Below are positions 29,261 through 54,470 of a stretch of DNA of 64,000 bases, piece after piece. A program made the translations under genes and the position numbers. Below the pieces are notes generated by a model that had not been told where the DNA came from, did not search any database, and saw only the letters and a program-made list of their open reading frames with translations. The stretch is from Thermoanaerobaculia bacterium. GTDB taxonomy: Bacteria; Acidobacteriota; Thermoanaerobaculia; Multivoradales; UBA5704. Numbering within the stretch: position 1 is the first letter of the stretch; the number at the start of each line of letters is the position of its first letter. The stretch lies in the NCBI GenBank assembly GCA_035544895.1, contig DASZZM010000092.1, forward strand, positions 5,852 through 69,851, written 5' to 3'.

Positions 29261-30259
29261 ATGAAAGCGGTGCGCGGGGATAAGACGGAGGCGGGACCAG
29301 TCGTCGACGGCGCGGGCATCGCCGGCGCCTATGAGGTCATCAAGCCGTACGTGCGGGTGACCCCAACCGTCGCCGCCGGCGGCGCGGACTTCGGGCTGCC
29401 GCCCTTCCCGCTGACCCTAAAGCTCGAGCAGCTGCAATACGCCGGATCGTTCAAGACGCGCGGCGCCTTCGCGAACCTTCTCCTGCGCGAGGTTCCAGCG
29501 GCGGGGGTCGTCGCCGCTTCGGGCGGCAATCACGGCGTCGCCGTGGCTTATGCCGCGATGCGCCGAGGCGTGCGCGCCAAGATCTTCGTCCCCGGCGTCG
29601 CCTCGCCCGCCAAGACCGCGAGCATCCGGGCCTATGGCGCCGATCTGACCATCGTCGGCGAGCGCTATGCGGACGCGCTGGAGGCGGCGGACGCCTGGGC
29701 CGACCGGACGGGGGCGCTCTCCGTGCACGCTTTCGACCAGGTGGAGACGATGCTGGGCGCGGGGACGGTCGGCATGGAGCTCGCGAGGCAGGTCCCCGGC
29801 CTCGACACCGTCCTGGTCGCCGTCGGAGGCGGCGGGTTGATCGGCGGGATCGCCGCCTGGTACGCGGCGCAAACCACAGGCGGCAGCCGAGCCGTCCGGA
29901 TCATCGGCGTCGAGCCCGAGGCCGCACCGACCTTGACCGCGGCGCTCGCGGCCGGCCGGCCGGTCGACGCCCCTGCGGGCGGCATCGCCGCGGACTCTCT
30001 CGCGCCCCGCCGCGTCGGCGAGCTGATGTTCCCGATCGCGCGGTCTCACGTCGATTCCGTGCTTCTGGTCGGCGACGACGCGATCCGCCGCGCCCAGCAG
30101 GCCCTCTGGGACGGCGTCAGGGTGGTCGTCGAGCCGGGGGGCGCGGCTGCTCTCGCCGCGCTGCTTTCCGGCGCCTACGAGCCGGCGGCGGCGGAACGGG
30201 TCGGCATCGTGGTCAGCGGCGGAAATACCACCGCGGTCGATTTCTCCACCCGGCGATGA
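29261..30259 (+). CDS. PLP-dependent threonine/serine dehydratase family protein
   Basis: AGSFKTRGAFANLL (PLP lysine motif), GGNHG, GGGGLIGG glycine loop. Confidence 0.8.
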   Translation: MKAVRGDKTEAGPVVDGAGIAGAYEVIKPYVRVTPTVAAGGADFGLPPFPLTLKLEQLQYAGSFKTRGAFANLLLREVPAAGVVAASGGNHGVAVAYAAMRRGVRAKIFVPGVASPAKTASIRAYGADLTIVGERYADALEAADAWADRTGALSVHAFDQVETMLGAGTVGMELARQVPGLDTVLVAVGGGGLIGGIAAWYAAQTTGGSRAVRIIGVEPEAAPTLTAALAAGRPVDAPAGGIAADSLAPRRVGELMFPIARSHVDSVLLVGDDAIRRAQQALWDGVRVVVEPGGAAALAALLSGAYEPAAAERVGIVVSGGNTTAVDFSTRR

Positions 30260-30265
30260 CCCCCA

Positions 30266-30961
30266 TCAGCGGCAACAGTGGGCGAGGGCGGCACGGTCGA
30301 GGACGCGGATGCGGTGGTCGCCGTCCACCGCGATGTAACCGCGCTGCTTGAAGTCGCCGATGGCCTGGTTGACGCGCTCGCGCGAGGCGCCCACGATCTC
30401 GCCCAGGTCGCTCTGGGTGAGGCGCAGCGGGATGCGGGCTTCCCCGCCGGCGCCCGGCCTGCCGTAGCGGTCGGCCAGCGCCAGGATCTGGCGCGCCACA
30501 CGGCCCGGCACGTCGAGGGTGCAGAGCGCCAGAATCTGCTCGTTGGCAAAACGCAGGCGATGCGACAGCAGGCGGACCAGGTTATTGGCCAGAGGAGCGA
30601 GGCTGCGGACGCAGGCGTGGAAAGTCGAGCGGTCCAGCCACAGCAGTTGCGACGGCTCCGTGGTCACCACGTTGGCGGAGCGCCCGGCGCTGTCCATCAG
30701 GCTCATCTCGCCGACCGTGTCACCCGGCCCGAGAAAGGCCAGGATCACCTCGCGGCCATCCGCCCGGCTGACGTAGATCTTCACCGTCCCGTCGAGCAGC
30801 ACGTACACGACCTCGCCCGGCTGCTCGGCGGTGATGAAGTGGGCTCCCGCCGGCACCGCCGAGGCATGCAGCAGCCCGTTGAGATGGGCGAGCTCCTCCG
30901 TGCTGAGCCCCTGGAACAGCTCCAGCTCTCCCAGCCGATTCGCGTCTTTCACCGCGGGCAT
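30266..30961 (-). CDS. Crp/Fnr family transcriptional regulator
   Basis: cNMP-binding beta-barrel (GEVVYVLLDGTVKIY...GPGDTVGEMSLMD) plus C-terminal HTH (LRLTQSDLGEIVGASRERVNQAIGDFKQRGYI). Confidence 0.8.
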   Translation of the reverse strand: MPAVKDANRLGELELFQGLSTEELAHLNGLLHASAVPAGAHFITAEQPGEVVYVLLDGTVKIYVSRADGREVILAFLGPGDTVGEMSLMDSAGRSANVVTTEPSQLLWLDRSTFHACVRSLAPLANNLVRLLSHRLRFANEQILALCTLDVPGRVARQILALADRYGRPGAGGEARIPLRLTQSDLGEIVGASRERVNQAIGDFKQRGYIAVDGDHRIRVLDRAALAHCCR

Positions 30962-31068
30962 CGTTTGCCTCTATCGTAGAACAAAAAGGGCGCTGCTCTC
31001 GCTCTGCGGGCGGTCCCTGCCCCAGCACCGTCCCGGACCTGAGAAACCCCTTCGCTGACTCTTTACTG

Positions 31069-32220
31069 CTACCGCCCCAGCAGGCCGGCGAGCACTTCGA
31101 CGCCGCGCTCGACGACGTCGGGGGGGGCGGCGGTGAAGCAGAGGCGGACGTGGTGGGGGTAGGGGCCGAAGCTGGGGCCGGGGGCGACGAAAAGGCCGCG
31201 CTCGACGCAGTCCTCGAGGAAGCCGCCCAGGCCGCGCTCGTCGAGACGGTCCGCGACGTCGAGGAACAGGAAGGTGCTGCCGCCCGGCGGCTCGAGCCCC
31301 AGGCGCGCCGCGACGCGCTCGCCGATGGCCTGGTATTGCGCACGGGCCTGGGCGATCCACGGCTCTCCGAGGCCGGAGAGCACCCGCAGGGCGGCGATCT
31401 GCGACGCGGTCGGCGTGCTGTAGAAGCTGTGCAGACCGACCTTGCGCAGCTCCACCATGGCGGTGGCAGGACCGATCACGAAGCCGCAGCGGTTGCCCGC
31501 CATGCCGTAGGCCTTGGAGAAGGAGTGGACCGCGAAGGTGCGCTCAGGGGCGAGCGGCCGGCTGTAGGTGTGCTCGCCGCCATAGACATAGTCCTCGTAG
31601 ACCTCGTCGGCCATCACCCAGAGGTCTTGCCGCGATGCCCAGGCGATCAGGGCCTCGACCCAGGTGCGCGGCAGGACCTGCCCGGTGGGATTGCAAGGAG
31701 TGTTCAGGTAAAGCGCAATCGTGCGCTCGCCCAGGTAGGAGGCCGCCACTTCCACGGCGCTCTCCGGCGAGTCGGCGACGCCGAAAAACGGAACCTCGAC
31801 CGGCACGCCGCGGAACGAGCGGACGATGCCGGAGATCAGCGGCCAGTGCGGCGAGAGCACCAGCACTTCGTCGCCGGGGCCGACAATCGCCCCGGCCACG
31901 GCGCCCAGGGCACCGGTGGCTCCAGTGGCGATCAAGACGTTGTCCCGCTCGGTGGGAACGCCGCTGCGCCCGCGGGTCTGTTCGACGATCGCGTCGAGCA
32001 GCGCCGGCATACCTTGGGGCGGAGCGTAACGATGCATTCCGGGCCACTCGGCCACTTTGAGGTCCTCCATGCGGCATCCTTCCGGAGGCTCCATCCAGGT
32101 ATCTCCGACGTGCAGCGGATAGACCTCGCCCTGGTGGCAAGCCAGGCGGTGGGCGAGCGCCGAATAGACGTTGCCGGCGATATCGCCCACCGAAGGGGAG
32201 AATGCGGGGTGGCGCGGCAT
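31069..32220 (-). CDS. pyridoxal-phosphate-dependent aminotransferase (class I/II)
   Basis: ...ADEVYEDYVY...HSFSKAYGMAGNRCGF... carries the PLP lysine in the SFSK context. Confidence 0.85.
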   Translation of the reverse strand: MPRHPAFSPSVGDIAGNVYSALAHRLACHQGEVYPLHVGDTWMEPPEGCRMEDLKVAEWPGMHRYAPPQGMPALLDAIVEQTRGRSGVPTERDNVLIATGATGALGAVAGAIVGPGDEVLVLSPHWPLISGIVRSFRGVPVEVPFFGVADSPESAVEVAASYLGERTIALYLNTPCNPTGQVLPRTWVEALIAWASRQDLWVMADEVYEDYVYGGEHTYSRPLAPERTFAVHSFSKAYGMAGNRCGFVIGPATAMVELRKVGLHSFYSTPTASQIAALRVLSGLGEPWIAQARAQYQAIGERVAARLGLEPPGGSTFLFLDVADRLDERGLGGFLEDCVERGLFVAPGPSFGPYPHHVRLCFTAAPPDVVERGVEVLAGLLGR

Positions 32221-32352
32221 CGCCAGATGCTATCGCAAGAGCTCTTTGCGCGGTCGAAGCTCCGGGTTGCCCGGGAGCTCCGCGATCTCACCGGCGCGGG
32301 CAGAAAGATGCCGCGGTTTCAGGTAGGATTCCGAATAACTACCTTGTTCGCA

Positions 32353-34626
32353 ATGAGATCGCAATTGCGCGCCAATCGAAACATCCGAACCACACTCGCC
32401 CTGATGCTGATCCCTGGCATCGCGCTCCTGCTGTACTTCCAGGGGGTGTACGCCGTTTCGAGCGCCGCGCGGCGGGTCGGTTTCCTGCCAGCCGAGTCCC
32501 CGGGAGGGCTGCGCGTCGGCGCGCTCCAGCCGGGGTTGCCGGCAGAACGCGCGGGCCTGCGCCGCAACGACCTGATCGTGGCCGTCGACGGCAGGGCAAT
32601 CGAAGGCGACCTCTCCTACCAGCGGGTGGCGCGCCAGTACCAACCGGGCAAGCCGGTCCACATGCGCATCCTCCGGCAGGGACGGCCCCTGGACATCACG
32701 GTCCGCCCCGGAGTCCCTTTCCCGTACTTGACCTTCTCGCTCAACCTTTTGGCCGCGCTGGGGTTCCTCGCCGTCGGTCTGCTCGCCCTCGGCCAGGGCT
32801 TGCGCGACCTGCGCACCCGGCTCCTCTTCGGATTCACCGCGGCCGTGGCCGTCGAGCTGGTCTTGCCAATCAACGTCATCGGCAGCGCCTGGCTGCGCGC
32901 CGCCGCGCTGTGCGCCTGGTACCTGCTGACCGGACTGCAGATCGGCCTCGAGCTGCACATGGCTTCGCTGATCCCCGAGCGGCACGCCTGGCTGCGCGGC
33001 CGCCGCTGGGTGGTCCCGCTCTACTACCTGGTCGGGCTCGGCCTGGGCGGCGCAAGCTGCGCCTCCTATGTCGCCGACGAGATCCTGGGCGCCCGCGTCT
33101 TGCCCTGGACCTCGGATCAGATCGATTCGCTGCTCTCGAACTTCGGGCTGCCGCTCTGGGGCGCCGTGGTCTCGCTCCTGCTGGCGAGCCAGGCGCTGCG
33201 CTATCCCGAGCCCCGGGGGCGGCACCAGGCCGGCCTGGTCCTCTCCGCGGTGATTCCCTGGTTTCTCCTGGCAACCACCCAGTCGGCGCTCAACCTGCTC
33301 GGGCTGCCGAGCCCGAACTGGCTCAACGCGGCCCAGTCGCTGATCCTGCTCCTCTATCCGCTGGCGCTGTTTGCGGCCGTCTACCTTTACAACCTGTTCG
33401 ACATCGAGCTGGTGGTCCGCCGTAGCCTGCTTTTCTCCACGCTTTCCGGCGCCCTCGTCGTGGTCTTCTATGCCGCCCTGGGCGGCGCGGGCCTGCTTTT
33501 CCCGCGCCTGGCACGCGGCACCCACTCGGTATCGGCGGTCGCCGTCGCCATGCTGCTGCTCGGGCTGCTCTTCGCTCCGCTGCGGCGCATTGCCCACCGG
33601 CTGATCGACCGCCAGTTCTTTCCCGAGCGCCACGAGATGCGCCAGCGCCTCATCGGCCTCGCCGGCGAGTTGCCGGCGCTCGGCAAGCTGCCGCGCATGG
33701 GGCAATACCTGGTGTCGCGGCTGGCCGAGATCTTCCACTCGCGTTCGGTGGTTCTCCTCATCGCCAGCCCCGAGACCGGCCTGCTCGACCTCCTGGCGAC
33801 CACCGGCGACGAGTGGCACGAGGCGGCGCGCAAATCCCTCCTGGCGCCGCTCGACGATCCCGGTATCGAAGCGCTGATGAGGAGCCCGCGGCCTCTCTCG
33901 GCGGCACAGCTGGCGCGCCGCAGCCCGACCCTCGCCCACCGCCTGGCCGGGCTCGCTCCAAGCGGCCTGGCCGTGCCGCTGCTCAGAAACGATCGTTTGA
34001 TCGGCGCCCTGGTGGTGGGCGACAAGGCCGGCGGCCAGGGCTATCCTTCCGAAGAGCAGGATCTGCTGACGCTGCTCGCCCACCACGTGGCCTCGGTGTT
34101 CGAGAACGCGCGTCTGTTCGAGTCGGCGACCTACGAGAGCCTGACCGGCCTGCTGCGCCGCGAGGCCATCCTCGAGCAGCTGGAGCGCGAACTGGAGCGC
34201 GCGCTGCGCTACGGCCGGCCGCTCACCCTGGCGATGGCCGACCTCGACTATTTCAAGGGCGTCAACGACCGCTACGGTCACCTCGCCGGCGACACGCTGC
34301 TCAAGGCCATCGCTCAGGCAGTCGCGGCCGGAGTGCGCAGCACCGACCTGATCGGGCGCTACGGCGGCGAGGAGTTCCTGCTGGTGCTGCCGGAAACCGA
34401 TATCGCCGGGGGGGCAAGCGTGGCCGAGAAGATCCGCACCCTGGTCCAGAAGACCGCCGTGCCGATGGACGACGGCTCTCTCTTGCGGGTCACCATCTCG
34501 ATCGGTCTGGCCGCGGTCAGCGATCACGAGAAACTCACGGCCCGCCACCTCATCGCGGCAGCCGACCGTTCCCTCTACGAGGCCAAGAACAGCGGCCGCA
34601 ACCGCGTCTACCCCCTGGTCGCTTAA
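32353..34626 (+). CDS. membrane sensor diguanylate cyclase (PDZ plus multi-TM plus GAF-like plus GGDEF)
   Basis: Real part of listed ORF 31150..34626 from MRSQLRANRNIRTTLALMLIP; PDZ (GLRRNDLIVAVDGRAI), about 8 TM helices, C-terminal GGDEF (RYGGEEFLLVLPETD...SIGLA..., DxLTGL). The opposite-strand ORF 32230..34638 is antisense. Confidence 0.8.
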   Translation: MRSQLRANRNIRTTLALMLIPGIALLLYFQGVYAVSSAARRVGFLPAESPGGLRVGALQPGLPAERAGLRRNDLIVAVDGRAIEGDLSYQRVARQYQPGKPVHMRILRQGRPLDITVRPGVPFPYLTFSLNLLAALGFLAVGLLALGQGLRDLRTRLLFGFTAAVAVELVLPINVIGSAWLRAAALCAWYLLTGLQIGLELHMASLIPERHAWLRGRRWVVPLYYLVGLGLGGASCASYVADEILGARVLPWTSDQIDSLLSNFGLPLWGAVVSLLLASQALRYPEPRGRHQAGLVLSAVIPWFLLATTQSALNLLGLPSPNWLNAAQSLILLLYPLALFAAVYLYNLFDIELVVRRSLLFSTLSGALVVVFYAALGGAGLLFPRLARGTHSVSAVAVAMLLLGLLFAPLRRIAHRLIDRQFFPERHEMRQRLIGLAGELPALGKLPRMGQYLVSRLAEIFHSRSVVLLIASPETGLLDLLATTGDEWHEAARKSLLAPLDDPGIEALMRSPRPLSAAQLARRSPTLAHRLAGLAPSGLAVPLLRNDRLIGALVVGDKAGGQGYPSEEQDLLTLLAHHVASVFENARLFESATYESLTGLLRREAILEQLERELERALRYGRPLTLAMADLDYFKGVNDRYGHLAGDTLLKAIAQAVAAGVRSTDLIGRYGGEEFLLVLPETDIAGGASVAEKIRTLVQKTAVPMDDGSLLRVTISIGLAAVSDHEKLTARHLIAAADRSLYEAKNSGRNRVYPLVA

Positions 34627-34946
34627 TGGATCCGGCAAAGCTTCTCACCGAGGTGCGGCGCCTGCCGGACGAACGGCACCTGCAGCTGACCTGGAGCGAC
34701 GGGCACAGCGCGGAGTACGCCTACGACTTCCTGCGCGGCTGGTGCCCGTGCGCCGCCTGCCAGGGGCACTCCGGCCTCGAGATCCTCTATCATCCGCCGC
34801 CGTCGCCGGTCACCGCGCGATCCATTCAACCCGTCGGCAACTACGCGATCTCCATCGGCTGGTCGGATGGGCATGGTACAGGCATCTACCGCTTCGAGTT
34901 CCTGCGCGAGATCTGTCCCTGCGGCCAGTGCTCAACTACTTCTTAA
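34626..34946 (+). CDS. DUF971 zinc-binding small protein
   Basis: MDPAKLLTEVRRL...WSDGHSAEYAYDFLRGWCPCAAC...GWSDGHGTGIYRFEFLREICPCGQC has two CxC/CxxC pairs typical of DUF971; ATG overlaps the GGDEF stop (TAATG). Confidence 0.7.
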   Translation: MDPAKLLTEVRRLPDERHLQLTWSDGHSAEYAYDFLRGWCPCAACQGHSGLEILYHPPPSPVTARSIQPVGNYAISIGWSDGHGTGIYRFEFLREICPCGQCSTTS

Positions 34947-34970
34947 TTGGCGCCGCCCAGTGGCCCCGAA

Positions 34971-35095
34971 GCATGAAACAGCGCTCGCTAGCTGGCGATG
35001 GCGGCCTCAGATCTATCGGATCGCCCCCCGCAACCCCTCGATCCCCTTCCCTCCCCTCCGGGGGGGAAGGGGACGCCCCCACCCCTGACGCACGA
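34971..35095 (+). repeat. REP/MITE-like hairpin repeat, copy B (full length)
   Basis: catgaaacagcgctcgctagctggcgatggcggcctcagatctatcggatcgccccccgcaacccctcgatccccttccctcccctccgggggggaaggggacgcccccacccctgacgcacg; stem CCCCTTCC/GGAAGGGG. Confidence 0.75.
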
Positions 35096-35104
35096 ACGAG
35101 ATTA

Positions 35105-35689
35105 CTGATCGGAGTCGCGCTCGCCGGCGGGGACTCGCGGCGCATGGGAAGCGACAAGATGGCTCTCGATCTGGGCGGAGAGACGCTGCCCGCCCTGGCC
35201 GCCGGGCGGCTGGCGGCGGTCTGCTCCGAAGTGGCGATCGCCGACCGCGGCCGGCGCCTGGTGCCCGGCTACCGTTCCCTGGAGGACGCTGCCGTCGAGG
35301 GACCAGCCGCCGGTATCCTGGGGGCGGCGCGAGCTTATCCAGGGAGCCTCCTGCTCGTCCTCGCCTGCGACCTGCCGCGCATCCCCCTCGCTCTCCTCGC
35401 AGAGCTGGCCGCCTCCTCGGACTGCGACTGGGCCGTGCCCCGCTGGCGCCGCGGCCTCGAGCCCCTCTGCGCCCTCTACGGCCCCGCCGCCCTGGACGCC
35501 CTCGCCCGCCTCGCCGCGCGCGGCCTGCCCGCTCCCCATCGCCTCGGCGACGCCGGCGGCCTCGCCATCCGCTACGTCGACGAGCCCGAGCTTGCCCGCC
35601 ACGGAGCGCTCGAGGACCTCTTCCTCAATGTCAACACCCCCGCCGATCTCGCCCGCTGGCGCCGGCTCGACCCTGCGGACGCCAGGTAG
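35105..35689 (+). CDS. mobA: molybdenum cofactor guanylyltransferase MobA (start codon unresolved)
   Basis: LLIGVALAGGDSRRMGSDKMAL...LLVLACDLP matches the MobA N-terminal GxxLAGGxSxRMGxDK motif. No ATG/GTG/TTG between the repeat and the motif; the only in-frame ATG lies inside the repeat (34973). Confidence 0.7.
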   Translation: MIGVALAGGDSRRMGSDKMALDLGGETLPALAAGRLAAVCSEVAIADRGRRLVPGYRSLEDAAVEGPAAGILGAARAYPGSLLLVLACDLPRIPLALLAELAASSDCDWAVPRWRRGLEPLCALYGPAALDALARLAARGLPAPHRLGDAGGLAIRYVDEPELARHGALEDLFLNVNTPADLARWRRLDPADAR

Positions 35690-35770
35690 TGCTACGATGC
35701 CGACCCGATTTGCCGGCGCTCTGCGAGAGGACGGCGCCGGATCCGTCACGAGATCACAAGGAGAATACGC

Positions 35771-36352
35771 ATGGACCTCAGCCTGACCTTTCTCGTCTGC
35801 CTCCTCGCTTTCGCCGGTGCCGCCCCGGGGGCCGCCCCCGCCAAGCCCGCCAAGACCAATCCCAAGGTCACGCTCGACACCTCGAAGGGCAAGATCGTCA
35901 TCGAGCTCTATCCCGACAAGGCGCCCAAGTCCGTCGAGAACTTCCTCGCCTACGTCCGCTCCGGCACGTACAATGGCACCATCTTCCATCGCGTCATCCC
36001 CGGCTTCATGGTCCAGGGCGGCGGCTATGACGCCAACGGCGAGCAGAGGCCCACGCGCGCCCCCATCCAGAACGAATCGGACAACGGCCTCGCCAACGAG
36101 CGCGGCACCGTCGCCATGGCGCGGACCAACGATCCGAACAGCGCCACGGACCAGTTCTTCATCAACGTCAAGGACAACGCCTTCCTGAACCGGGGGGCGC
36201 AGGGCGCGGGCTACGCGGTGTTCGGCAAGGTGATCGAGGGCATGGACGTGGCCGACAAGATCGTCGCCGTTCCGCGTGGGCACGGCAGCATCGGCGACGA
36301 TCAGCCCAACGAGCCGGTGGTCCTCAACAAGGCGGTGGTGTCGAGCAAGTAG
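35771..36352 (+). CDS. ppiA: peptidyl-prolyl cis-trans isomerase, cyclophilin type, periplasmic
   Basis: Signal peptide, then GTIFHRVIPGFMVQGGG...GTVAMARTNDPNSATDQFFIN...GYAVFGKVIEGMDV cyclophilin signature. Confidence 0.85.
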   Translation: MDLSLTFLVCLLAFAGAAPGAAPAKPAKTNPKVTLDTSKGKIVIELYPDKAPKSVENFLAYVRSGTYNGTIFHRVIPGFMVQGGGYDANGEQRPTRAPIQNESDNGLANERGTVAMARTNDPNSATDQFFINVKDNAFLNRGAQGAGYAVFGKVIEGMDVADKIVAVPRGHGSIGDDQPNEPVVLNKAVVSSK

Positions 36353-36384
36353 GGTCGCTGGTCTTCCCGAAGCCTGCAAGAGTC

Positions 36385-36503
36385 CGGGGGCCGCAGGAGG
36401 TCTCCCGCAGGTTCCCCTTTCGCGGCGGCTCGCATCACAAGACAGGTTCGGGTACACACCGCAGAGCCGCCAGCGAAAGGGGAACCTGCGGGAGACCTCC
36501 TGC
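36385..36503. terminator. long near-perfect hairpin (about 40-bp arms, about 33-nt loop) between ppiA and tRNA-Leu; bidirectional terminator or structured RNA
   Basis: ccgcaggaggtctcccgcaggttcccctttcgcggcggctc ... gagccgccagcgaaaggggaacctgcgggagacctcctgcgg; the arms are reverse complements with one indel. Confidence 0.6.
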
Positions 36504-36581
36504 GGCCCACCACCGTTCACGCTCAGCGCGCGACCCACCGGCCTCAGACACCGCCAGTGAAGCTAGAATTTCTAGGAGGGA

Positions 36582-36666
<85 letters not shown>

Positions 36667-36741
36667 TCAAAGAATAGTCTAGCAAGCCCACCGGCCGGCG
36701 CCCCGATCTAGGGCCCGTCCCGAGTGGGGACCCGAGAGACT

Positions 36742-37128
36742 CTAACGCGGCGGCGGCCCTCCTGGACGGCCGGGAGCTGCCGGCGCGGGCCGCGAGCCGC
36801 CCACCGGCGCGCCGGTCTTGCCGGGAACGGAGACCGGAGCGGTGGCAGGGCTCTTGGCGGGCTTGCCGGCGTTGGTCCTCGCGCCCTTCATCACCGAGCC
36901 CCCGGTCAGCTGTGGGATGCCGATCGCCAGCGTGGTCAAGATGAAGATGATGAACGAGGTGACGGTCAGCTTGTGCAGCAGCGTCGTTGCGCCGCGCGCG
37001 CCAAAGGCGGTCTGCGTGCTGCCGCCGCCGAAGACCGACAGGTCCGCCCCTTTGCCCTGCTGCAGCAAGACCACCAGGATCAAGAACACGCAGACCAGGA
37101 TATGCAGCACATACAGCAGATAGATCAC
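36742..37128 (-). CDS. secG: preprotein translocase subunit SecG (with Pro/Ala-rich C-terminal tail)
   Basis: [46 protein letters not shown]...LTTLAIG is the SecG signature; GTG start at 37128 (the listed ORF is extended upstream). Confidence 0.75.
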
Positions 37129-37240
37129 GGGTCGGGCCTCCAGCGCGGGGTAGGGACCCGGCGCTTTCCAGGGAAAGAGACGATCGAGTGCCGGCACGGC
37201 TGCGACGACTGCGACGACCGCAGCAGGGAGCGGCGGGCCG

Positions 37241-38020
37241 TCAGCCGGAAACACGAATGATAGCAAGGAATCGATGCGGGTCCAAACTGGCGCCGCCGAC
37301 GAGAAAGCCGTCGATGGCCTCCTGCTCAATCAGCCCGTCCGCGTTCTCCGGCGTGACCGAGCCTCCGTAGACGATGGGAATGGCGGGTGCCCCTTCGCCC
37401 ATCAGCTCCTCCACCACTCCGCGCATGAAGGCATGGGCCTCCTGAGCCATCTCGGGAGTCGCCGTGTCGCCGGTACCGATGGCCCAGACCGGCTCGTAGG
37501 CAATTGCCACCGGCTCCGGCCTGCCGGCGAGCGCGCGGCGCAGCTGGCGCCCGAGCACCTCGAACGTGCGACCGGCCTTGCGCTGGGTCCGGGTCTCCCC
37601 CACGCAGAGCATGGGAGTGAGCCCAAGCCGGACGGCCGTGGCCACCTTGCGGGCGATCAGCTCGTCGCTCTCGCCATGATCCCGCCGCCGCTCGCTGTGG
37701 CCGCACAGCACCCAGGAGCAGCCCGCGTCGGCAAGCTGGCGCCCTGAGACGTCGCCGGTGTGCGCCCCCTTGTCCTCGGGGTGCAGGTCCTGCCCGCCCA
37801 CGGCCACCTCGTTGTCCACCAGCTCACGCGCCACCACCGGGATGAGCGGGAACGAAGGAAAGATCACGATCCGCGCCGTCTGCTCGAGCAGGGCGTCGGA
37901 AGCCGCCAGGCCGCGGCGCAGCGCCCGGCAGAAGTCGATGGCCTCGGCCTTGAGCAGGTTCATCTTCCAGTTGGCCGCCACCACCGGCCGGCGTCTGCTC
38001 GGAGGGCGCTCGGCGCTCAT
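37241..38020 (-). CDS. tpiA: triose-phosphate isomerase
   Basis: VVAANWKMN...AYEPVWAIGTG...VYGGSV TIM motifs. Confidence 0.9.
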   Translation of the reverse strand: MSAERPPSRRRPVVAANWKMNLLKAEAIDFCRALRRGLAASDALLEQTARIVIFPSFPLIPVVARELVDNEVAVGGQDLHPEDKGAHTGDVSGRQLADAGCSWVLCGHSERRRDHGESDELIARKVATAVRLGLTPMLCVGETRTQRKAGRTFEVLGRQLRRALAGRPEPVAIAYEPVWAIGTGDTATPEMAQEAHAFMRGVVEELMGEGAPAIPIVYGGSVTPENADGLIEQEAIDGFLVGGASLDPHRFLAIIRVSG

Positions 38021-39273
38021 TGCCCGCGCTCCAGGACCGCGACGCCGGGAAGCTCCTTGCCGGCCAGGAGTTCCAGGGCCGCTCCGCCGCCGGTCGACAC
38101 ATGACCGATGCGGCCCGCCACTCCCGCCTGGCGCGCAGCGGCCACGGTCTCGCCGCCGCCGATCACCGAGTACCCCGCGCAGCCGGCCAGAGCCTGTGCC
38201 ATCTCACGCGTACCGGCATCGAAAGGCGGCTTCTCGAAGACACCGAGCGGGCCGTTCCAGAGCAGGGTGCGCGCCCCTGCCATCGCCCGCGCGAACGCCT
38301 GCCGAGTGGCCGGGCCGATATCCACCGCCCTGGTGCCCGGAGGCACCCGGTCAGCCGGCACCGTCTCGATCCGCCGCGGCTGGTCGAGGTCGTCGGTCAC
38401 CACCAGGTCGAGCGGCAGCAGCACCTCGACGCCGCGGGCGGCGGCGCGCTCCAGGATCTCGCGCGCCAGCGGAACCCGGTCCTCCTCGAAGAGCGAGGCG
38501 CCAAGCTGGTACCCGCGAGCCCGCAGGAAAGTGTTGGCCATGCCGCCGCCCAGCAGCAGGACGTCGAGCCGGGGTAGAAGGTTGGCGAGGGTATCGATCT
38601 TGCCTTCGATCTTGGCGCCTCCGAGCAGAGCGACAAAGGGCCGCTCGGCGTCACCGAGAAGCCGGGCCAGGGATGCGACCTCTCTCGCCATCAGGCGGCC
38701 GGCGGCCCTGCGGGTCAGCTGGCGCGTGATCCCGACCACCGAAGCGTGGGCGCGGTGGGCGCTGCCGAAGGCGTCGTCCACGTAGACCTCGGCCAGGGCT
38801 GCGAGCTGCGCCGCGAAGGCCGGATCATTGCGCGTCTCGCCGGCATGGAAACGCAAGTTTTCCAGCAGCAGCACCTCGCCGCGGCCCAGCGCGGCCGCCG
38901 CGGCCGCGGCCTTCTCGCCGACGCAGTCTTCGGCGAAGCCGATTTCCTGGCCGAGCAGCTCCGCGAGCCTTTCGGCCACCGGGCGCAGGCTGAACCGCGC
39001 GTCGCGCTCGCCCTTCGGCCGTCCACAATGGGAAGCGAGCAGCAGGCAGCCGCCCGCCGCTGCGAGCTCGCGCAGGGTCGGCAGCGCTTCGATCAGCCGG
39101 GAATCGTCCAAGACCCTGCGGCCGGTGCCGGCCGCGGCCTCGCCGCCGGTCCCGGCGTCCTCCGCCTTCCCGGACGGCTGGGCGAGAGGAACGTTGAAAT
39201 CCACGCGGACGAACACCCGCTTGCCCCCGAGAGCTCCGAGGTCGAGGTCCTCCAGGGTCAGCAGATCGCTCAT
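38017..39273 (-). CDS. pgk: phosphoglycerate kinase
   Basis: RVFVRVDFNVP...LLENLRFH...LLGGAKI..GKI...GGGMANTFL...NGPLGVFE...VIGGGET Pgk motifs; overlaps tpiA by 4 bp. Confidence 0.9.
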   Translation of the reverse strand: MSDLLTLEDLDLGALGGKRVFVRVDFNVPLAQPSGKAEDAGTGGEAAAGTGRRVLDDSRLIEALPTLRELAAAGGCLLLASHCGRPKGERDARFSLRPVAERLAELLGQEIGFAEDCVGEKAAAAAAALGRGEVLLLENLRFHAGETRNDPAFAAQLAALAEVYVDDAFGSAHRAHASVVGITRQLTRRAAGRLMAREVASLARLLGDAERPFVALLGGAKIEGKIDTLANLLPRLDVLLLGGGMANTFLRARGYQLGASLFEEDRVPLAREILERAAARGVEVLLPLDLVVTDDLDQPRRIETVPADRVPPGTRAVDIGPATRQAFARAMAGARTLLWNGPLGVFEKPPFDAGTREMAQALAGCAGYSVIGGGETVAAARQAGVAGRIGHVSTGGGAALELLAGKELPGVAVLERGQ

Positions 39274-39343
39274 GGATGCGCGTCCTTCTCAGTGGGCACC
39301 GGCTGTGCCGACCCGAAGGATGAGATGGTACTGCGAGTTCTTC

Positions 39344-40357
39344 TTAGAGACATAGCGTAGCCTGGCGGCTCAGCAGATCGGCAAGCCGATGGGCGTAGCC
39401 CCACTCGTTGTCGTACCAGGCCACGACCCGCGCCAGGTCGCCGACCGTCTGCACCAGGGCAAGGTCGACGACGGCCGACCGGGGATCGCCGACGAAGTCG
39501 GACGAGACGAGCTCTTCGTCGCTCACTCCCACGAGCCCCGCGAGAGGCCCCTCCGCGGCATCGCGGAACGCTTGCCGCACCTCTTCCAACGTCACTCGCC
39601 GGTCGAGCGACGCCACCAGGTCGAGCATGGCGACTGCCGGCGTCGGCACGCGCGCCGAGAATCCCTCGATCCGGCCGGCGAGCTCCGGACAGATGAGCCC
39701 GACGGCATGCGGCGCGGTCGTGGAAGTGGGAATGATGTTGAGCGCCGCCGCGCGCGCCCGCCGCGGCTCCGGGTGCGCGAGGTCGAGCAGCCGCTGGCTC
39801 TCGGTGTAGCTGTGCACGGTGCTGGCAAGCGCTCCACGCAACCCAAACCGCTCGTGCAGCACGCGAGCCACCAGCGCCAGGCAGTTGGTCGTGCACGAGG
39901 CGTTGCTGACCACGCTGTGAAGGCGCGGGTCGTAGTCGCGCTCATTGATTCCCTGGCAGACCGTGATATCGGCTGGATCGTCCGGATCGGCATTGGCCGA
40001 GATGACGACCGAGAGGGCGCCCGCCGCCAGATGGGCCGCCGCCCGGCCGCGCCCGGTGAAGCGGCCCGTGGCCTCGATCACCACCGTGACGCCGGCTTTC
40101 CGCCAATCGATCCTCGCCGGCTCCGGCTGGTGGCTGACCGGGACGTCGCGGCCGTCGATGCGCAGCGCCTCCGCCGCGGCCGCAACCGTGGCGCGGAAAG
40201 GCCCATGCACCGTGTCACGGGCCAGGAGGCGCGCCAGCACCGGTATCTCGACGATATCGTTGATCGCCGCGAGCTCGAGCTCGGGCCGGTCCCAGGCGAT
40301 GCGCAGGAGAGCACGGCCGATGCGGCCGAAGCCGTTGATGGCGTAGCGGAGGGGCAT
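39344..40357 (-). CDS. gap: glyceraldehyde-3-phosphate dehydrogenase (type I)
   Basis: INGFGRIGRALLR...SNASCTTNCLA...WYDNEWGY; start at MPLRYAING (the listed ORF is extended). Confidence 0.9.
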   Translation of the reverse strand: MPLRYAINGFGRIGRALLRIAWDRPELELAAINDIVEIPVLARLLARDTVHGPFRATVAAAAEALRIDGRDVPVSHQPEPARIDWRKAGVTVVIEATGRFTGRGRAAAHLAAGALSVVISANADPDDPADITVCQGINERDYDPRLHSVVSNASCTTNCLALVARVLHERFGLRGALASTVHSYTESQRLLDLAHPEPRRARAAALNIIPTSTTAPHAVGLICPELAGRIEGFSARVPTPAVAMLDLVASLDRRVTLEEVRQAFRDAAEGPLAGLVGVSDEELVSSDFVGDPRSAVVDLALVQTVGDLARVVAWYDNEWGYAHRLADLLSRQATLCL

Positions 40358-40485
40358 GGTCTCGGTGGGCGAGTCGGCAAACCGCCAAGCCACTCTATCA
40401 GCGGTGTCACGGGCCGGCACTTCGGGGCACTGATAGAATGGGCTGTGGCTCGCCGAGCGCGGCCTTCTATTACAGGAGGACGACA

Positions 40486-40848
40486 ATGGAAATGGGCAAG
40501 TATTGCAAGGCCTATCTCGCCAAGGACTTGCGGCAGTATCCCGGATGGAGCGAGAACAAGGCCAACGTGCGCAAGGAAAAGAAGGAGGTCGACGGCAAGG
40601 AAATCGAGGTCGACCGCGAGCTGGACGACGAGTCCATCCTCTACATCCAGGAGAACTATGTCGTCACCGACGACATCTTCAAGGACGAGCACATCATCTT
40701 CGACAACGTGACCGACGAATGGAAGCAGTTCTGCCACGAGACTCTCCACTTCGAGATCCCGGTCTATGAGCCGATCGAGATCCCGCGGGCCGAGGAGCCT
40801 GCTCCAGCGGCCGCCGCCGACACCGAGCCGGCACCCAGCAACGGATAG
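40486..40848 (+). CDS. conserved hypothetical protein (120 aa, acidic)
   Basis: AGGAGGA RBS, ATG, coding-like composition (MEMGKYCKAYLAKDLRQYPGWSENKANVRKEKKEV...); no recognisable domain. Confidence 0.5.
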   Translation: MEMGKYCKAYLAKDLRQYPGWSENKANVRKEKKEVDGKEIEVDRELDDESILYIQENYVVTDDIFKDEHIIFDNVTDEWKQFCHETLHFEIPVYEPIEIPRAEEPAPAAAADTEPAPSNG

Positions 40849-40852
40849 AGGG

Positions 40853-40897
40853 CGCGGGGGGGAAGGGGACGCCCCCACCCCTGGCGCACGCACCTTC
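40853..40897 (+). repeat. REP/MITE-like repeat, partial copy C (3' half only)
   Basis: gcgcgggggggaaggggacgcccccacccctggcgcacgcacc matches the 3' arm of copies B/D; directly abuts the conserved TsaD N-terminus. Confidence 0.6.
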
Positions 40898-41947
40898 GTT
40901 CTTGGCATAGAGACGTCGTGTGACGATACCGCCTGCTCCGTCCTCGATGGCGAGGGGCGGGTGCTCTCTTCGGTCGTCTCGAGCCAGCTCGCCGCCCATC
41001 GTCCCTACGGCGGTGTCGTTCCCGAAATCGCCTCGCGCGAGCATCTGGCCAACTGGCTGCCGGTGAGCGGGGAGGCGTTGGCGCTCGCCGGCGTCACACC
41101 CGCGCAGTTGGAGGTGGTGGCGGCGACGCGCGGCCCCGGGCTGGTCGGCGCGCTGCTGGTCGGCCTGGCCCTGGGCAAAGCCTTCGCCTTCGCGCTCGGC
41201 CGTCCCTTTCACGCCATTCACCATCTGGAGGGCCACCTCTACTCGCCTTTCCTCAGCGCGCCGGATCAGATCGCCGTGCCGGCCGAGCCGCCGCCGGCGC
41301 GCTTTGCCGGGCTGGTGCTCTCGGGCGGACATACCAGCCTGTTCGCGGTTTCGGAAGGGCGGATCGAGACGCTCGGCGAGACACGCGACGACGCCATTGG
41401 AGAAGTCTTCGACAAGCTGGGCAAGCGGCTCGGCCTGCCCTACCCGCAAGGGCCGCGGCTCGATGAGCTGGCCGAGCGCGGCGACCAGCAATCGCGCCGC
41501 TTGCCGGTCCCCGCCTGCGGCGGCACCCTCGACTTCTCCTTCTCCGGGTTGAAGAGCCACGCCCTGGTCGAGGTCGAAAAGTTGGAGCGCCGCCTCGGCC
41601 CGCTCTGGCTGGGCGGCCCGCGGCCGGACGCGCCGCAGGAGCTTCTCGACCTGCTCGCCGCCTTTCGCGCCGCCGCGATCGCCCAGGTGTTCGACCGCCT
41701 CGACCGCCTGCTGGATCGCCAGCCGGTCGAGCTCCTGGCAGTGTCGGGCGGCGCCGCCGCCAACCGTCTCCTGCGCCGCGAGCTCCCTTCCTGGGCCGCA
41801 CGCCGCGGCCTCGCCCTCCGCCTCGTGCCCCTCGCCTACGCCGGCGACAACGCCGCCATGATCGCCCACGCCGCCCTCCTCCGCCATCACCGTGGCCTGG
41901 CGGACGATCCCTTCACCGCGGAAGCCGAGAGCCGGATTCGGATCTAG
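40895..41947 (+). CDS. tsaD: tRNA N6-adenosine threonylcarbamoyltransferase TsaD (start codon unresolved)
   Basis: FVLGIETSCDDTACSVLDGEG...HHLEGHLYSP...GLVLSGGHTSL...LSGGAAANRLLR is the Kae1/TsaD family. No canonical start between the repeat and VLGIETSCDD; the listed ORF starts at 40766, reading through the repeat and overlapping the upstream gene. Confidence 0.8.
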   Translation, partial: FVLGIETSCDDTACSVLDGEGRVLSSVVSSQLAAHRPYGGVVPEIASREHLANWLPVSGEALALAGVTPAQLEVVAATRGPGLVGALLVGLALGKAFAFALGRPFHAIHHLEGHLYSPFLSAPDQIAVPAEPPPARFAGLVLSGGHTSLFAVSEGRIETLGETRDDAIGEVFDKLGKRLGLPYPQGPRLDELAERGDQQSRRLPVPACGGTLDFSFSGLKSHALVEVEKLERRLGPLWLGGPRPDAPQELLDLLAAFRAAAIAQVFDRLDRLLDRQPVELLAVSGGAAANRLLRRELPSWAARRGLALRLVPLAYAGDNAAMIAHAALLRHHRGLADDPFTAEAESRIRI

Positions 41948-41983
41948 CTAGTCTTAGCTGCCACCGCCTGCTGCGACTCCGAG

Positions 41984-42107
41984 GCATGAACAGCGCTCGC
42001 TAACTGGCGATGGCGGCCTCCGATCTATCGGATCGCCCCCCGCAACCCCTCGATCCCCTTCCCTCCCCTCCGGGGGGGAAGGGGACGCCCCCGCCCCTGA
42101 CGTACGG
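41984..42107 (+). repeat. REP/MITE-like hairpin repeat, copy D (full length)
   Basis: catgaacagcgctcgctaactggcgatggcggcctccgatctatcggatcgccccccgcaacccctcgatccccttccctcccctccgggggggaaggggacgcccccgcccctgacgtacgg; upstream of lrp. Confidence 0.75.
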
Positions 42108-42189
42108 AGAGTTTCGTCTTAACCTGGGGCCCGGCCTGCCAGATTTCTCCTGGGCTGGGTTATGATCGGGAGGGGGAGGGAGAGAGCGC

Positions 42190-42690
42190 ATGATCGACGG
42201 TATTGATGTGGAAATCCTGAAGATCCTTCAGCAGAATGCCCGGATCTCCAATGCGGAGATCGCTCGGAAGGTAGGAATGGCGCCGTCGGCGATACTCGAG
42301 CGCATTCGCAAGCTCGAGGGGAGAGGGGTCATCCAGGGATATGAGGCGAGGATCGACCCAGCGGCCCTGGGCCTGCATCTGCTGGCCTTCGTCTTCGTGC
42401 GTTCCGACGAGCTGGCCGGCGAGGCGCAGACGGCACAGGAGCTGGCGCGGATTCCGGAAGTGCAGGAGGTCCATCACATCGCCGGGGAGGATTGTTTCCT
42501 GCTCAAGGTGCGGGTCACCGATCCGAAGTCGCTCAGCCGCCTGCTGCGCGAGGGGCTGGGCAAGGGACAGGGGATCCGCTCGACCCGCACCACCATCGTC
42601 CTGGAGACGGCTCTCGAGAGCGCCCGGCTGCCGGTCACGGCGGTTGGCGCCACGGCGAAGCTGGAGGTGCTCCATGCCGACCAGCGCTGA
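42190..42690 (+). CDS. lrp: Lrp/AsnC family transcriptional regulator
   Basis: MIDGIDVEILKILQQNARISNAEIARKVGMAPSAILERIRKLE (HTH) plus RAM domain (…LLAFVFVRSDE…FLLKVRV…). Confidence 0.85.
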   Translation: MIDGIDVEILKILQQNARISNAEIARKVGMAPSAILERIRKLEGRGVIQGYEARIDPAALGLHLLAFVFVRSDELAGEAQTAQELARIPEVQEVHHIAGEDCFLLKVRVTDPKSLSRLLREGLGKGQGIRSTRTTIVLETALESARLPVTAVGATAKLEVLHADQR

Positions 42691-43678
42691 AACCCCGGCC
42701 CTTCGCGTGGCGCAATGGCGCATTGCCCTCGCCCTGGCGGCGGTCTACGTTGTTTGGGGATCGACCTATCTGGCCATGCGCGTCAGCATCGAGACGCTGC
42801 CGCCCTTGACGGCTGCCGGCCTGCGTTACCTCGCCGCCGGGGGCCTGGTCTACGGGTGGGCGCGCTGGCGCGGCGCGCCTCCCGCGAGCGCGCGCCACTG
42901 GCGCTCGGCGGCGGTGATCGGCGCCCTTCTCCTGCTCGCCGGCAACGGCGGCGTGATGTGGGCGGAGCAGCAGGTGCCGTCGGGGCTGGCGGCGCTGGTC
43001 ATCTCCACCGAGCCCCTGTGGATCGTTCTCCTGGTCTGGATGAGGCGGGGAGGAAGACGGCCGAGCTCTCGGGTCGCCATCGGCCTGGTGATCGGCTTCG
43101 CCGGCCTGGCGCTCCTGGTGCGCCCGAGCGCCGGCAATGGCCTGCCGCTCGCCGGCACCGTCGTGCTGGCGGTTGCCTCGGTCTGCTGGGCAGCCGGCTC
43201 GGTGTACTCGCAGCGCGCTCCGCTCCCCGCCTCCCCGCTGCTGGCCACCGGCATTCAGATGCTGTGCGGTGGCGCGCTCCTCTTCCTCGCGGGCGCCGTG
43301 GCGGGAGAGCCCGCACGCTTCGCCGTCGCCGCGGTCTCCTCACGCTCGGTCCTGGCCCTGCTCTACCTGATCGTCTTCGGCTCCATGGTCGCCTTCACCT
43401 GCTACAGCTGGCTCCTCCGCGTCGCCTCGCCGGTCCTCGTCTCCACCTACGCCTACGTCAATCCCGTCATCGCCGTCTTCCTCGGCTGGGCCCTCGCCCA
43501 CGAGCCCATCACCTCCGGCACCCTCCTCGCCGCCGCCGTCATCCTCGCCGGCGTCGTCCTCATCACCACCGCCGAAGCCACCCGCGCCCGTCGCCCCGCG
43601 CCCCACCGGCCGCAACCCTCCACCATCCCCACCCATCCGGCGGAGGAGCTCGTCGAAGCCGAGACCTGCCCCAGATAA
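42674..43678 (+). CDS. EamA/DMT-family transporter
   Basis: Ten TM helices with two EamA-like halves (…VYVVWGSTYLAMRV…; …LLYLIVFGSMVAFTCYSWLL…). Start at MPTSAETPALR; the listed ORF 42341.. is extended through lrp. Confidence 0.75.
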   Translation: MPTSAETPALRVAQWRIALALAAVYVVWGSTYLAMRVSIETLPPLTAAGLRYLAAGGLVYGWARWRGAPPASARHWRSAAVIGALLLLAGNGGVMWAEQQVPSGLAALVISTEPLWIVLLVWMRRGGRRPSSRVAIGLVIGFAGLALLVRPSAGNGLPLAGTVVLAVASVCWAAGSVYSQRAPLPASPLLATGIQMLCGGALLFLAGAVAGEPARFAVAAVSSRSVLALLYLIVFGSMVAFTCYSWLLRVASPVLVSTYAYVNPVIAVFLGWALAHEPITSGTLLAAAVILAGVVLITTAEATRARRPAPHRPQPSTIPTHPAEELVEAETCPR

Positions 43679-46834: not shown

Positions 46835-47206
46835 TCACGGAGCATCTATCGGATCGCCCCCCGCAACCCCTCGAGAGGCCGCGGGCCGCCGGCAGAACGC
46901 CGGATCGAGCTCGCCGCTCGGCCTCGCCGCCGATTCGTCCGGGCCGATGGCGACGATCGCGACCATGCCGGCGCCGGCCGAGCGGCGCCGGCGCAGCAGG
47001 TCGAAGCAGGCGTTGCGGGTGACTCGTAGCAGCCATCCTGTCAGCATCTCGGGGTCGAGGCTTTCGCCGTGGCGCCACAAGCGCAGCAGCACCTCCTGGG
47101 TCACGTCCTCGGCCTCCTCGCGGCTGGCGAGGAGGTAGCGGGCAAAGGTGTAGACCCTGCGCTGGTGCCGCCTGACCGCCGCCTCGAAGTCCATCGGCAC
47201 CTCCAT
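46835..47206 (-). pseudogene. ECF sigma-70 factor, region 2 only (truncated; region 4 missing)
   Basis: MEVPMDFEAAVRRHQRRVYTFARYLLASREEAEDVTQEVLLRLWRH...LTGWLLRVTRNACFDLLRRRR is a canonical sigma-2 domain. The ORF then runs about 45 aa with no sigma-4 HTH and terminates in the repeat translation (…RGVAGGDPIDAP). Confidence 0.55.
46841..46875 (+). repeat. REP/MITE-like repeat, partial copy E (5' half)
   Basis: agcatctatcggatcgccccccgcaacccctcgag matches the 5' arm of the family; embedded in the 3' end of the sigma-factor ORF. Confidence 0.6.
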
Positions 47207-47292
47207 CTGAGCAGAACGCAAGACCGCCCACGGAAGTTACAAGACGGCCAAGACGCCAACCGCGCCGAGGTCGAAGCTCCCGCGCGGGCTGC

Positions 47293-52896: not shown

Positions 52897-52928
52897 CTTT
52901 AGTGTCCCTAGCTCTCCCAGAGCCGGCC

Positions 52929-54203: not shown

Positions 54204-54227
54204 CGCTGCGATGTGGCGGTAGATGAC

Positions 54228-54352: not shown

Positions 54353-54470
54353 CTAATCGTTTCGCTCTTGTTTTAGGCCCGGCTGGTTGGCTGGGGCTGG
54401 ACTAGCCCGCCCTCGCCACAGATGCGGTAGCATCGGAGGGCCAGCCCGCCCACAGGACAAGGAGGCAGTG

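Follow-up and report, generated by a model that had tools for sequence, protein, structure and literature searches.

Repeat copies in the window

A 64,000-nucleotide stretch of contig DASZZM010000092.1 of a Thermoanaerobaculia bacterium, referred to here as the window, carries a short hairpin-forming repeat at six places. The window has a G+C content of 69%, its proteins are annotated as HVT18900-18934, and the nearest homologues of its Lrp protein carry the names Thermoanaerobaculia or Acidobacteriota. The genes that flank the copies are ordinary housekeeping genes, encoding an nfo-like AP endonuclease, RseP, DUF971, MobA, cyclophilin, TsaD, Lrp, an extracytoplasmic function (ECF) sigma factor, DUF4252 and a glycerate-kinase-like protein. 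A repeat search of the window found a 118-nt pair with 97% identity (34977-35094 and 41989-42106) together with additional 31-nt and 39-nt families; it linked all six sites, and the six sites align. The recurrence is far above chance: the 31-nt hairpin core has three exact matches in the window, and the 33-nt core of the 5' part has four matches at three or fewer mismatches, versus none for either in 100 shuffles. Four copies are full, at about 150-177 nt each, and two are fragments. The copies and related features are as follows.

8329-8332, no strand: unoccupied CTAG target; a sister strain has a truncated minus-strand copy exactly there.
About 9231-9380, minus strand: copy wedged between two convergent stop codons; its 5' side abuts the TAG of rseP (M50 protease) at 9378-9380, and its 3' terminal TTA coincides with the TAA of the nfo-like AP endonuclease gene at 9231-9233.
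34934-35103, plus strand: full copy between DUF971 (34626-34946) and mobA, with an alternative 5' end (TTAA/TTGGCGCCGCCCAGTGG...) and a degenerate 3' end; limits from the strain-alignment block.
35043-35073, plus strand: central GC-rich hairpin of the preceding copy, CCCCTTCCCTCCCC-TCC-GGGGGGGAAGGGG, better conserved than any other module of the family, located by exact matches and identical at 42055-42085 (plus) and 9262-9292 (minus).
40849-40905, plus strand: 3' fragment comprising the right hairpin arm and the tail ...CACCTTCGTTCTTGG, in frame within the annotated TsaD N-terminus and present in all three strains compared below.
41948-42122, plus strand: the best-defined full copy, 175 nt, delimited by comparison of the filled site with the empty site of a near-identical strain; it begins CTAGTCTTAG-CTGCCACCGCC..., terminates ...GAGAGTTTCGTCTTAA, and lies directly 3' of the tsaD stop (ATC TAG, 41945-41947) and upstream of lrp/asnC (42190-42690).
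46838-46874, plus strand: 37-nt internal fragment (AGCATCTATCGGATCGCCCCCCGCAACCCCTCGA) at a deletion junction.
About 54200-54376, plus strand: copy with a 5'-truncated or degenerate start and a 31-nt extra tip module; its start overlaps the TAG (54201-54203) of the glycerate-kinase-like gene and its 3' end is ...TTTCGCTCTTGTTTTAG; the site is also filled in strain SRR12277193.

A prior sequence-only reading had placed the repeat correctly at all six sites, while its limits were wrong: the copy near 42 kb occupies 41948-42122 rather than 41984-42107, and the unit, taken to be about 120 bp, is actually about 175 nt by the filled versus empty comparison. Its statement that all copies can fold holds for the four full copies, which form the CCCCTTCCC...GGGAAGGGG hairpin, and fails for the two fragments because each lacks one arm. 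Copies were rightly described as intergenic or at gene termini, yet several overlap annotated coding sequence, and repeat-derived peptides are indeed present in open reading frames (ORFs), including those of the annotated proteins HVT18920.1 and HVT18933.1.

Dispersal and strain polymorphism

A scan of one genome per species with a 20-mer of the core (GGATCGCCCCCCGCAACCCC) found at least 61 loci, at least 58 of which are on 37 contigs of a single Thermoanaerobaculia metagenome-assembled genome (MAG), DASZZP01. This MAG, which contains at least 71 distinct copies, represents another species, with syntenic genes 78-83% identical to those of the window, and the copies of the two genomes are at non-orthologous positions. 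A metagenome scan with the right hairpin arm found at least 120 loci, and the family hairpin is present in at least 84 of 123 matches. All contigs with this hairpin have a G+C fraction of 0.66-0.78, their sources are soil and sediment, and many carry genes 70-83% identical to those of the MAG; some possess a complete element that shares both the 5' and the 3' module, and others the core of about 65 nt alone with different flanks, or tandem cores. No family member was found in the viral contigs searched. At least two species carry the family in multiple dispersed copies, as the sequence-only reading had anticipated for a high-copy hairpin family of REP/MITE type (repetitive extragenic palindrome, REP; miniature inverted-repeat transposable element, MITE), and it is not confined to the region in which it was noticed. 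The hundreds of copies per genome foreseen in that reading are plausible.

Contigs corresponding to the window were retrieved through exact-protein look-ups from its own strain (Logan SRR12277192) and from two sister strains, SRR12277193 and JGI 3300062721, which have 95-99% nucleotide identity to the window. At four or more sites with flanks that are 95-99% identical, a copy is present in some of the three strains and absent from others. The compared sites are listed with a slash at each junction.

tsaD-lrp, window: 175-nt insert, ...ATCTAG/CTAGTCTTAGCTGCC...GTTTCGTCTTAA/CCTGGGG.
tsaD-lrp, SRR12277193 (L183): empty, ...ATCTAG/CCTGGG, with junction ...GGATCTAG/CCTGGGCCCGG and an upstream flank 99% identical.
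tsaD-lrp, JGI strain: 5' half only, of the other 5' subfamily, with about 20 nt of flank deleted.
DUF971-mobA, window: copy present; the DUF971 C-terminus is rewritten (QCSPA* to QCSTTS*) and the ATG of mobA itself is removed.
DUF971-mobA, SRR12277193 (L187): empty, ...GCCTAG/ATCCCTGCCCTCGATGACACCGATCGG, with a 13-nt spacer to the mobA ATG.
DUF971-mobA, JGI 3300062721 (L188 3322-3534, Ga0599163_0007510): long-tip copy, with the element body and 21 nt of flank, including the mobA ATG, inverted.
Upstream of nfo: empty in the window (CTAG at 8329); truncated copy in the JGI strain (L189 2853-2984), inserted between window positions 8317 and 8329, with 5' junction GATTCTAG/TGGCCTGCGG on the element strand.
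Downstream of the cyclophilin gene: no copy in the window, a copy in SRR12277193, no copy in the JGI strain.
rseP-nfo (copy near 9 kb): short tip in the window; orthologous copy in the JGI strain (L189) with a long tip and a linked 2-nt change.

The tsaD-lrp site is therefore found in three states (full copy, 5' half and empty). The family is recently active and mobile, being gained or lost between strains of one species, and the suggestion that it may be a substrate of transposition is borne out by these polymorphisms within near-identical flanks. The orthologous copies near 9 kb have identical flanks and idiosyncratic ends common to both strains, and the comparisons at this site and near 35 kb point to gene conversion between dispersed copies, through which modules (the hairpin tip and the 5' end) are apparently exchanged. 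The related-species MAG is of no use for empty-site comparison because its intergenic regions are too diverged. Short-read contigs repeatedly terminate within the repeat, five Logan contigs ending inside copies.

Structure of the element

The element begins, after a flanking YTAG, with three to eight variable nucleotides and a small GC palindrome, followed by ...CCCGAGGSATGAAAC-GGCGCTGCGATGTGGCGG...CTACTCGAAGCATCKATC and the core GGATCGCCCCCCGCAACCCCTCGATC. A 14-bp hairpin (CCCCTTCCCNCCCC/GGGGGGGAAGGGG) comes next, then ACGCCCCC, a second small hairpin in many copies (CTCCCC...GGGGAG), 11 nt from the end, and TTTCGTCTTAG. The terminus is (A/G)GTTTCGT(C/T)(C/T)TAG, the 3' end reading ...GTTTCGTCTTAG and the 3' module ...GGGGAGTTTCGTCTTAG. 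Palindromes with short stems of 4-6 bp are present close to both termini. The one at the 5' end, 3-8 nt from the junction, occurs as CACCG-G-CGGTG, CCGCC-T(GC)-GGCG(G) or CGCCC-AGT-GGGCG, the last belonging to a second 5' subfamily that starts TTGGCGCC; its form is kept between subfamilies and its sequence is changed. An ATGAAAC motif is conserved in the 5' part. No terminal inverted repeats were found in alignments of 5' ends or of whole copies, and comparison by eye of the first 35 nt or so with the reverse complement of the last 35 nt or so revealed no similarity; the two ends share a direct GTCTTAG-like motif.

Predicted folding was strong for part of the element and ordinary for the whole. 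The central hairpin has a free energy of -31.3 kcal/mol (z = -2.87, nearly equal on the opposite strand), and the extended hairpin of the copy near 54 kb reaches -46.2 kcal/mol; the whole-element consensus is not unusual (z = -1.3 as RNA, -1.7 as DNA), and the whole copy near 42 kb has z = -2.4. Among 27 copies analysed with RNAalifold, none of the 25 predicted pairs showed compensatory changes, only the central hairpin was robust, and mutated copies lose stem pairs; the absence of compensatory pairs and the broken pairs are signs of neutral decay. The sole match to Rfam 15 at the gathering threshold is a tRNA, and the best matches on the element at permissive thresholds have E > 1. The main hairpin is followed directly by ACGCCCCC and not by a T-run, and a scan of 34000-43000 identified neither a canonical T-run terminator nor a promoter at either copy.

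Copies in the MAG fall into distance classes of about 51, 82, 94, 121 and 166 nt from the core to the 3' motif, because the hairpin tip holds extra palindromic modules. One of these, a 31-nt palindromic module (GCCGCCGGGTCCCTGCCCGGCGG), is present in the copy near 54 kb (at 54292-54314) and in MAG copies; it was ruled out as an independent mobile unit, being found solely within family members. A separate REP-like unit of 39-44 nt, with a variable GCCG...CGGC hairpin followed by a conserved tail, ACTYCCSGSAGGTCG, is abundant in the MAG, where it occurs alone, in tandem or nested in both orientations within elements, and always adjoins G-R-R-R-C (for example, three units in tandem at L046 ~4208-4330, and others at L002 289-348 and L018 1510-1569). 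None was found in the window.

Insertion sites and orientation

All three readable junctions with an empty allele are of the form CTAG/element, and two of the three are stop codons. CTAG is five-fold depleted in the window (39 observed versus 188 expected), and most of the surviving occurrences coincide with ORF ends. In the MAG, ten of 61 5' junctions fall precisely on the stop codon with which a long co-oriented ORF ends, and nine of 58 3' termini (CTA, TTA or TCA on the plus strand) serve as the stop for a long ORF of the opposite strand, the ORFs in both cases having high G+C content at third codon positions; abutment of stop codons is thus about as frequent on the sense side (ten) as on the antisense side (nine). 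Copies of either orientation come to lie at the ends of genes because CTAG is rare and survives mostly as TAG stops, and the 3' end of the element itself (...GTTTCGT-YTAG) recreates a stop for a gene arriving on the opposite strand. Together, landing at gene ends in either orientation and the stop-preserving YTAG account for the excess of copies between convergent genes (15) over copies between divergent genes (seven), for the weak orientation bias relative to genes (40 versus 25 among 65 copies), and for the co-orientation of all four full copies of the window with the preceding gene, which is also partly due to chance.

The left flank and the right end of individual copies do not co-vary beyond TA(G), and at the cleanest fresh insertion, near 42 kb, the left side is CTAG and the right side TTAA; for these reasons any target duplication is at most TA(G), and a longer one was ruled out. 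Both flanks of most copies carry YTAG or TTAA. Head-to-tail tandems share one YTAG (L019, L005, L014 and L060), and where copies form inverted pairs, ordinary genes lie between them and the spacing is 1.4-2.4 kb. Similarity to the element's 3' end, (T)TCGTCTTAG, is common in the 5-10 nt immediately left of the element; this leader may represent an extended target preference, decayed tandem insertions or sequence that travels with the element.

The cumulative GC skew of the window climbs to about 32 kb and then steadily declines (turning at ~30000-34000), a peak that may correspond to a replication terminus or to a change in the strand bias of genes. The single minus-strand copy is to the left of this peak, and all plus-strand copies are to its right.

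Mode of movement and relationship to known repeats

The copies are probably those of a non-coding, non-autonomous mobile DNA element of about 175 nt, mobilized in trans by an enzyme whose gene lies elsewhere. The family itself is new and is of an already known kind of selfish repeat, resembling REPs and the palindrome-associated transposable elements (PATEs) of a haloarchaeon. New copies are placed immediately 3' of CTAG, usually at the stop codon of a gene; the YTAG at the 3' end preserves a stop codon for a gene on the opposite strand; and copies, once inserted, exchange modules, apparently by gene conversion, and seed inversions and deletions. Any effects of the hairpins on transcripts in 3' untranslated regions are likely by-products and not the family's reason for being.

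By analogy with characterized systems, the element might move as a single strand through the action of an HUH-type tyrosine transposase, either as a PATE of the IS200/IS605 type or as a REP mobilized by a REP-associated tyrosine transposase (RAYT) or its TIRYT relative. This more specific proposal is offered tentatively, and the odds are somewhat against it; it is suggested by the lack of inverted ends, minimal or no target duplication, a fixed left tetranucleotide and a right terminal oligonucleotide, and also by the subterminal palindromes and head-to-tail tandems. Site-specific recombination of a circular form is also conceivable.

PATEs are non-autonomous derivatives of IS200/IS605-type elements in Haloquadratum walsbyi, defined to include nested small repeats and repeats at the same site in opposite orientation (PMC3119063). 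The present family fits the published description almost point by point. Both kinds of element are too short to encode a protein and lack inverted terminal repeats; PATEs also lack target duplications, and any duplication here is at most TA(G); both have palindromes near the two termini, a conserved short terminal oligonucleotide and heterogeneous outermost 20-50 nt; and both show strain-specific insertions, frequent internal deletions that leave terminal-only copies, other small repeats inserted within them and same-site copies in opposite orientation. In contrast to PATEs, the family is found in an Acidobacteriota bacterium and not a haloarchaeon, is dominated by a large central hairpin, had no detectable replication-strand bias, and has no IS200/IS605 partner (TnpA/TnpB) with matching ends in the 1.2 Mb searched.

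Acidobacteria possess RAYT-like TIRYT genes flanked by their own families of TIR repeats, which share the motif GGGGWSAS (PMC3733652). The core of the present element has GGGGACGC, a 7/8 match to this motif. Like REPs, BIMEs and REPINs, the family consists of extragenic, GC-rich palindromes, of which there are tens to hundreds of copies, located for the most part directly downstream of genes; it has a tetranucleotide tag beside a palindrome (CTAG/TTAG here, GTAG in REPs) and, like BIMEs, mosaic combinations of modules. However, the unit of about 175 nt with three hairpins is much larger than the 20-40 nt stem-loop of a REP; only the 5' terminal module consists of a tag and a palindrome, and its tag is C/T-TAG rather than GTAG or CGTC; clusters are head-to-tail tandems and not head-to-head or tail-to-tail dimers as in REPINs; and no RAYT or TIRYT gene was seen flanked by copies. 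Three other classes of small repeat have partial resemblances. ERIC and BOX elements have size classes that result from internal modules, and the ends of MIRU elements overlap neighbouring stop and start codons, both of which are also true of the present family. However, ERIC is palindromic over its whole length, MIRU consists of direct tandem units inside operons, and none of ERIC/IRU, BOX or MIRU has any sequence relationship to the family.

The cognate enzyme was sought in 0.53 Mb and then in 1.2 Mb of sequence (the window, the MAG loci and the metagenome loci). TBLASTN with an IS200 TnpA and the Escherichia coli RAYT gave no match in either, and neither the window nor the 58 MAG loci nor the 120 metagenome loci yielded a RAYT or Y1 transposase; this sample is a fraction of a genome and too small to exclude one. 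RAYT genes are usually single-copy. No transposase is encoded by the ORFs between inverted pairs of copies, no transposase-bearing version exists among copies with only a left end, and none lies between paired 5' and 3' ends that are 0.35-4 kb apart.

Several observations weigh against the trans-mobilized element preferred here. No transposase was found beside the copies or anywhere in the 1.2 Mb. Orientation relative to the local GC skew was unbiased (38 versus 33, p = 0.64; skew over 8 kb is a noisy proxy), whereas elements of the IS200/IS605 type usually show replication-strand bias. The junctions are untidy: the insert near 42 kb starts with a 10-nt leader, CTAGTCTTAG, similar in sequence to the insert's 3' end, and 5-10 nt of flank were rewritten at the mobA site, so a simple and precise 'peel and paste' does not fit. 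Between species, the 65-nt core shows higher conservation than the protein-coding genes, which differ by about 20%, and this conservation could reflect selection for a function in the host and not the action of a transposase, gene conversion or transfer. The three strains are roughly equidistant, so that strain relatedness does not separate insertion from precise excision, and the polymorphisms could represent the latter as well as the former. Finally, a duplication of TA or TAG, as in IS630 or some IS5-group elements, is possible.

This last point leads to the alternative of a MITE of the cut-and-paste kind, mobilized by a CTAG-targeting DDE transposase with duplication of TA or TAG, in which the terminal YTAGs would be the target duplication. 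IS630 targets TA within CTAG, and some IS5-group elements target YTAR or TNA. The preference of the family for CTAG at all three fresh junctions and the YTAG or TTAA (YTAR) on both sides of most copies resemble MITEs of these groups, and a CTAG (flanks TAG...CAG) is likewise the insertion site of a 7.4-kb island of the window that has inverted ends of 171 nt, which indicates that some transposition system targeting CTAG or TAG is active in the organism. Nonetheless, terminal inverted repeats are lacking at both plausible boundaries, the tetranucleotide was not duplicated faithfully at the cleanest fresh insertion (CTAG versus TTAA, with at most TA duplicated), its first base does not co-vary between left and right in individual copies, and no DDE transposase adjoins any copy. 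The MITE label of the sequence-only reading therefore does not apply in its classical sense, which calls for terminal inverted repeats of 15-30 bp and a regular duplication where this family has no such repeats and no duplication longer than 2-3 nt, and mobilization by a DDE transposase is unlikely.

A little less likely still is that the family represents a distinct type of element adapted to gene termini, in which three properties operate jointly: integration at CTAG stops, harmless ends and a core used by the host. If so, the enzyme would be one with no earlier link to repeats of this type, for example an HUH protein similar to RAYT or TIRYT, or a site-specific recombinase whose substrate is a circular form joined at GTCTTAG; the 3' YTAG would restore a stop for an antisense gene; the ATGAAAC motif and the stop-free stretch that follows (in the one frame examined, in the copy near 35 kb) would provide the gene downstream with a start, MobA HVT18920.1 and the N-terminus of TsaD being examples; and the 65-nt core would be almost invariant across genera through host use, for instance as a hairpin signal, in DNA or RNA, at the ends of genes.

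It is improbable that the repeat is primarily an RNA or DNA signal selected by the host, such as a terminator or stabilizer in 3' untranslated regions, an sRNA-like anti-Shine-Dalgarno sequence with CCUCC loops or a protein-binding site, with its spread being secondary. All four full copies of the window follow a co-oriented gene, the central hairpin is of exceptional stability whichever strand is folded, the 65-nt core hardly varies between species with about 20% gene divergence, and REP-type repeats are reported mostly downstream of genes, acting in RNA (PMC3733652). However, over 65 copies the orientation bias is weak and placement at stop codons is similar in sense and antisense; the fold of the whole element is ordinary in the consensus, if less so in the copy near 42 kb; the CCUCC loop is swapped wholesale for unrelated modules in many copies; and copies are present or absent at housekeeping genes between strains of one species. 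The proposed role in termination or mRNA stability found no supporting evidence, since there is no T-run terminator, no Rfam family and no compensatory pair in 27 copies. A local segmental duplication or assembly artefact restricted to the window's contig, in favour of which there is nothing but the clustering of four plus-strand copies inside 20 kb, is refuted by the copies on 37 contigs of another genome and many metagenome contigs and by their reproduction in independent assemblies (NCBI MAG, Logan and JGI), in which short-read contigs break within copies, and its probability is close to nil.

Effects on neighbouring genes

Three annotated genes of the window incorporate repeat sequence. 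The product of mobA (34973-35689), MobA HVT18920.1, is annotated with 238 aa from the conserved ATG of the element at 34973, so that 42 of its residues are repeat-encoded, the frame being open through the whole element. MobA of the sister strains has 196 or 181 aa, and the strain with the empty site uses its own ATG, 13 nt past the DUF971 stop. TsaD HVT18927.1 is annotated by PGAP with 393 aa from an ATG at 40766, and by the JGI gene caller with 328 aa; there is no ATG, GTG or TTG between 40766 and the conserved LGIETSCD motif. The annotated extension of 45 residues is partly repeat-encoded and overlaps the upstream gene. The TsaD frame reads through the 3' fragment in all three strains, and the codons for F-V-L-G come from the 3' end of the fragment. 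At 46838-46899, 62 nt that include the 37-nt repeat fragment replace 903 nt of the two sister strains, a loss that covers sigma-70 region 4 and a zf-HC2 anti-sigma gene. The ECF sigma factor (46838-47221) is thereby reduced to a 119-aa stub, consisting of region 2 only and ending in repeat sequence.

The glycerate-kinase-like gene (DUF4147 and MOFRL domains) and its copy of the repeat, 52851-54450, have no counterpart in the related MAG, which has only 126 nt between the corresponding neighbour genes (L057 1648-1774).

Other features of the window

The 7.4-kb island (55406-62822) has a lower G+C content than its surroundings and inverted ends at 55401-55571 and 62654-62824 that are 92% identical. 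It is located at the CTAG stop of a gene encoding a GWxTD-domain protein, and strain SRR12277193 does not possess it. The island encodes a 1336-aa protein with NACHT and metallophosphatase domains (58561-62571) that looks like a defence-type STAND NTPase, and carries an IS66 transposase fragment (55571-55888), which was ruled out as the transposase of the repeat family because it is part of this separate island.

A 121-nt perfect palindrome (36388-36508), with 36-nt arms that are 100% complementary and a 49-nt spacer, is located between the cyclophilin gene and a tRNA gene (36585-36666, minus strand). It is missing in both sister strains and probably arose as a further, unrelated MITE-like insertion within a hypervariable spacer. 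A tandem repeat of about six 9-nt units resembling CGGCCATCG (63299-63352) is overlapped by ORFs on both strands (62665-63801, minus; 62949-63563, plus).

Significance

No general concept is changed by this family, as REP-, PATE- and MITE-like repeats are already well known. Its practical consequences are that it breaks short-read assemblies of Acidobacteriota that are common and uncultured in soil and sediment, and that it contaminates gene calls, MobA starting in a copy, TsaD reading through one and the ECF sigma factor ending in one. Since copies mark an inversion and the 0.9-kb deletion that removed an anti-sigma gene, the repeat drives differences between strains, and the family could serve as a marker of this Thermoanaerobaculia clade. 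The public samples SRR12277192, SRR12277193 and JGI 3300062721 contain three alleles at single sites, and this makes them a natural system for finding the enzyme of CTAG-directed elements without inverted repeats.

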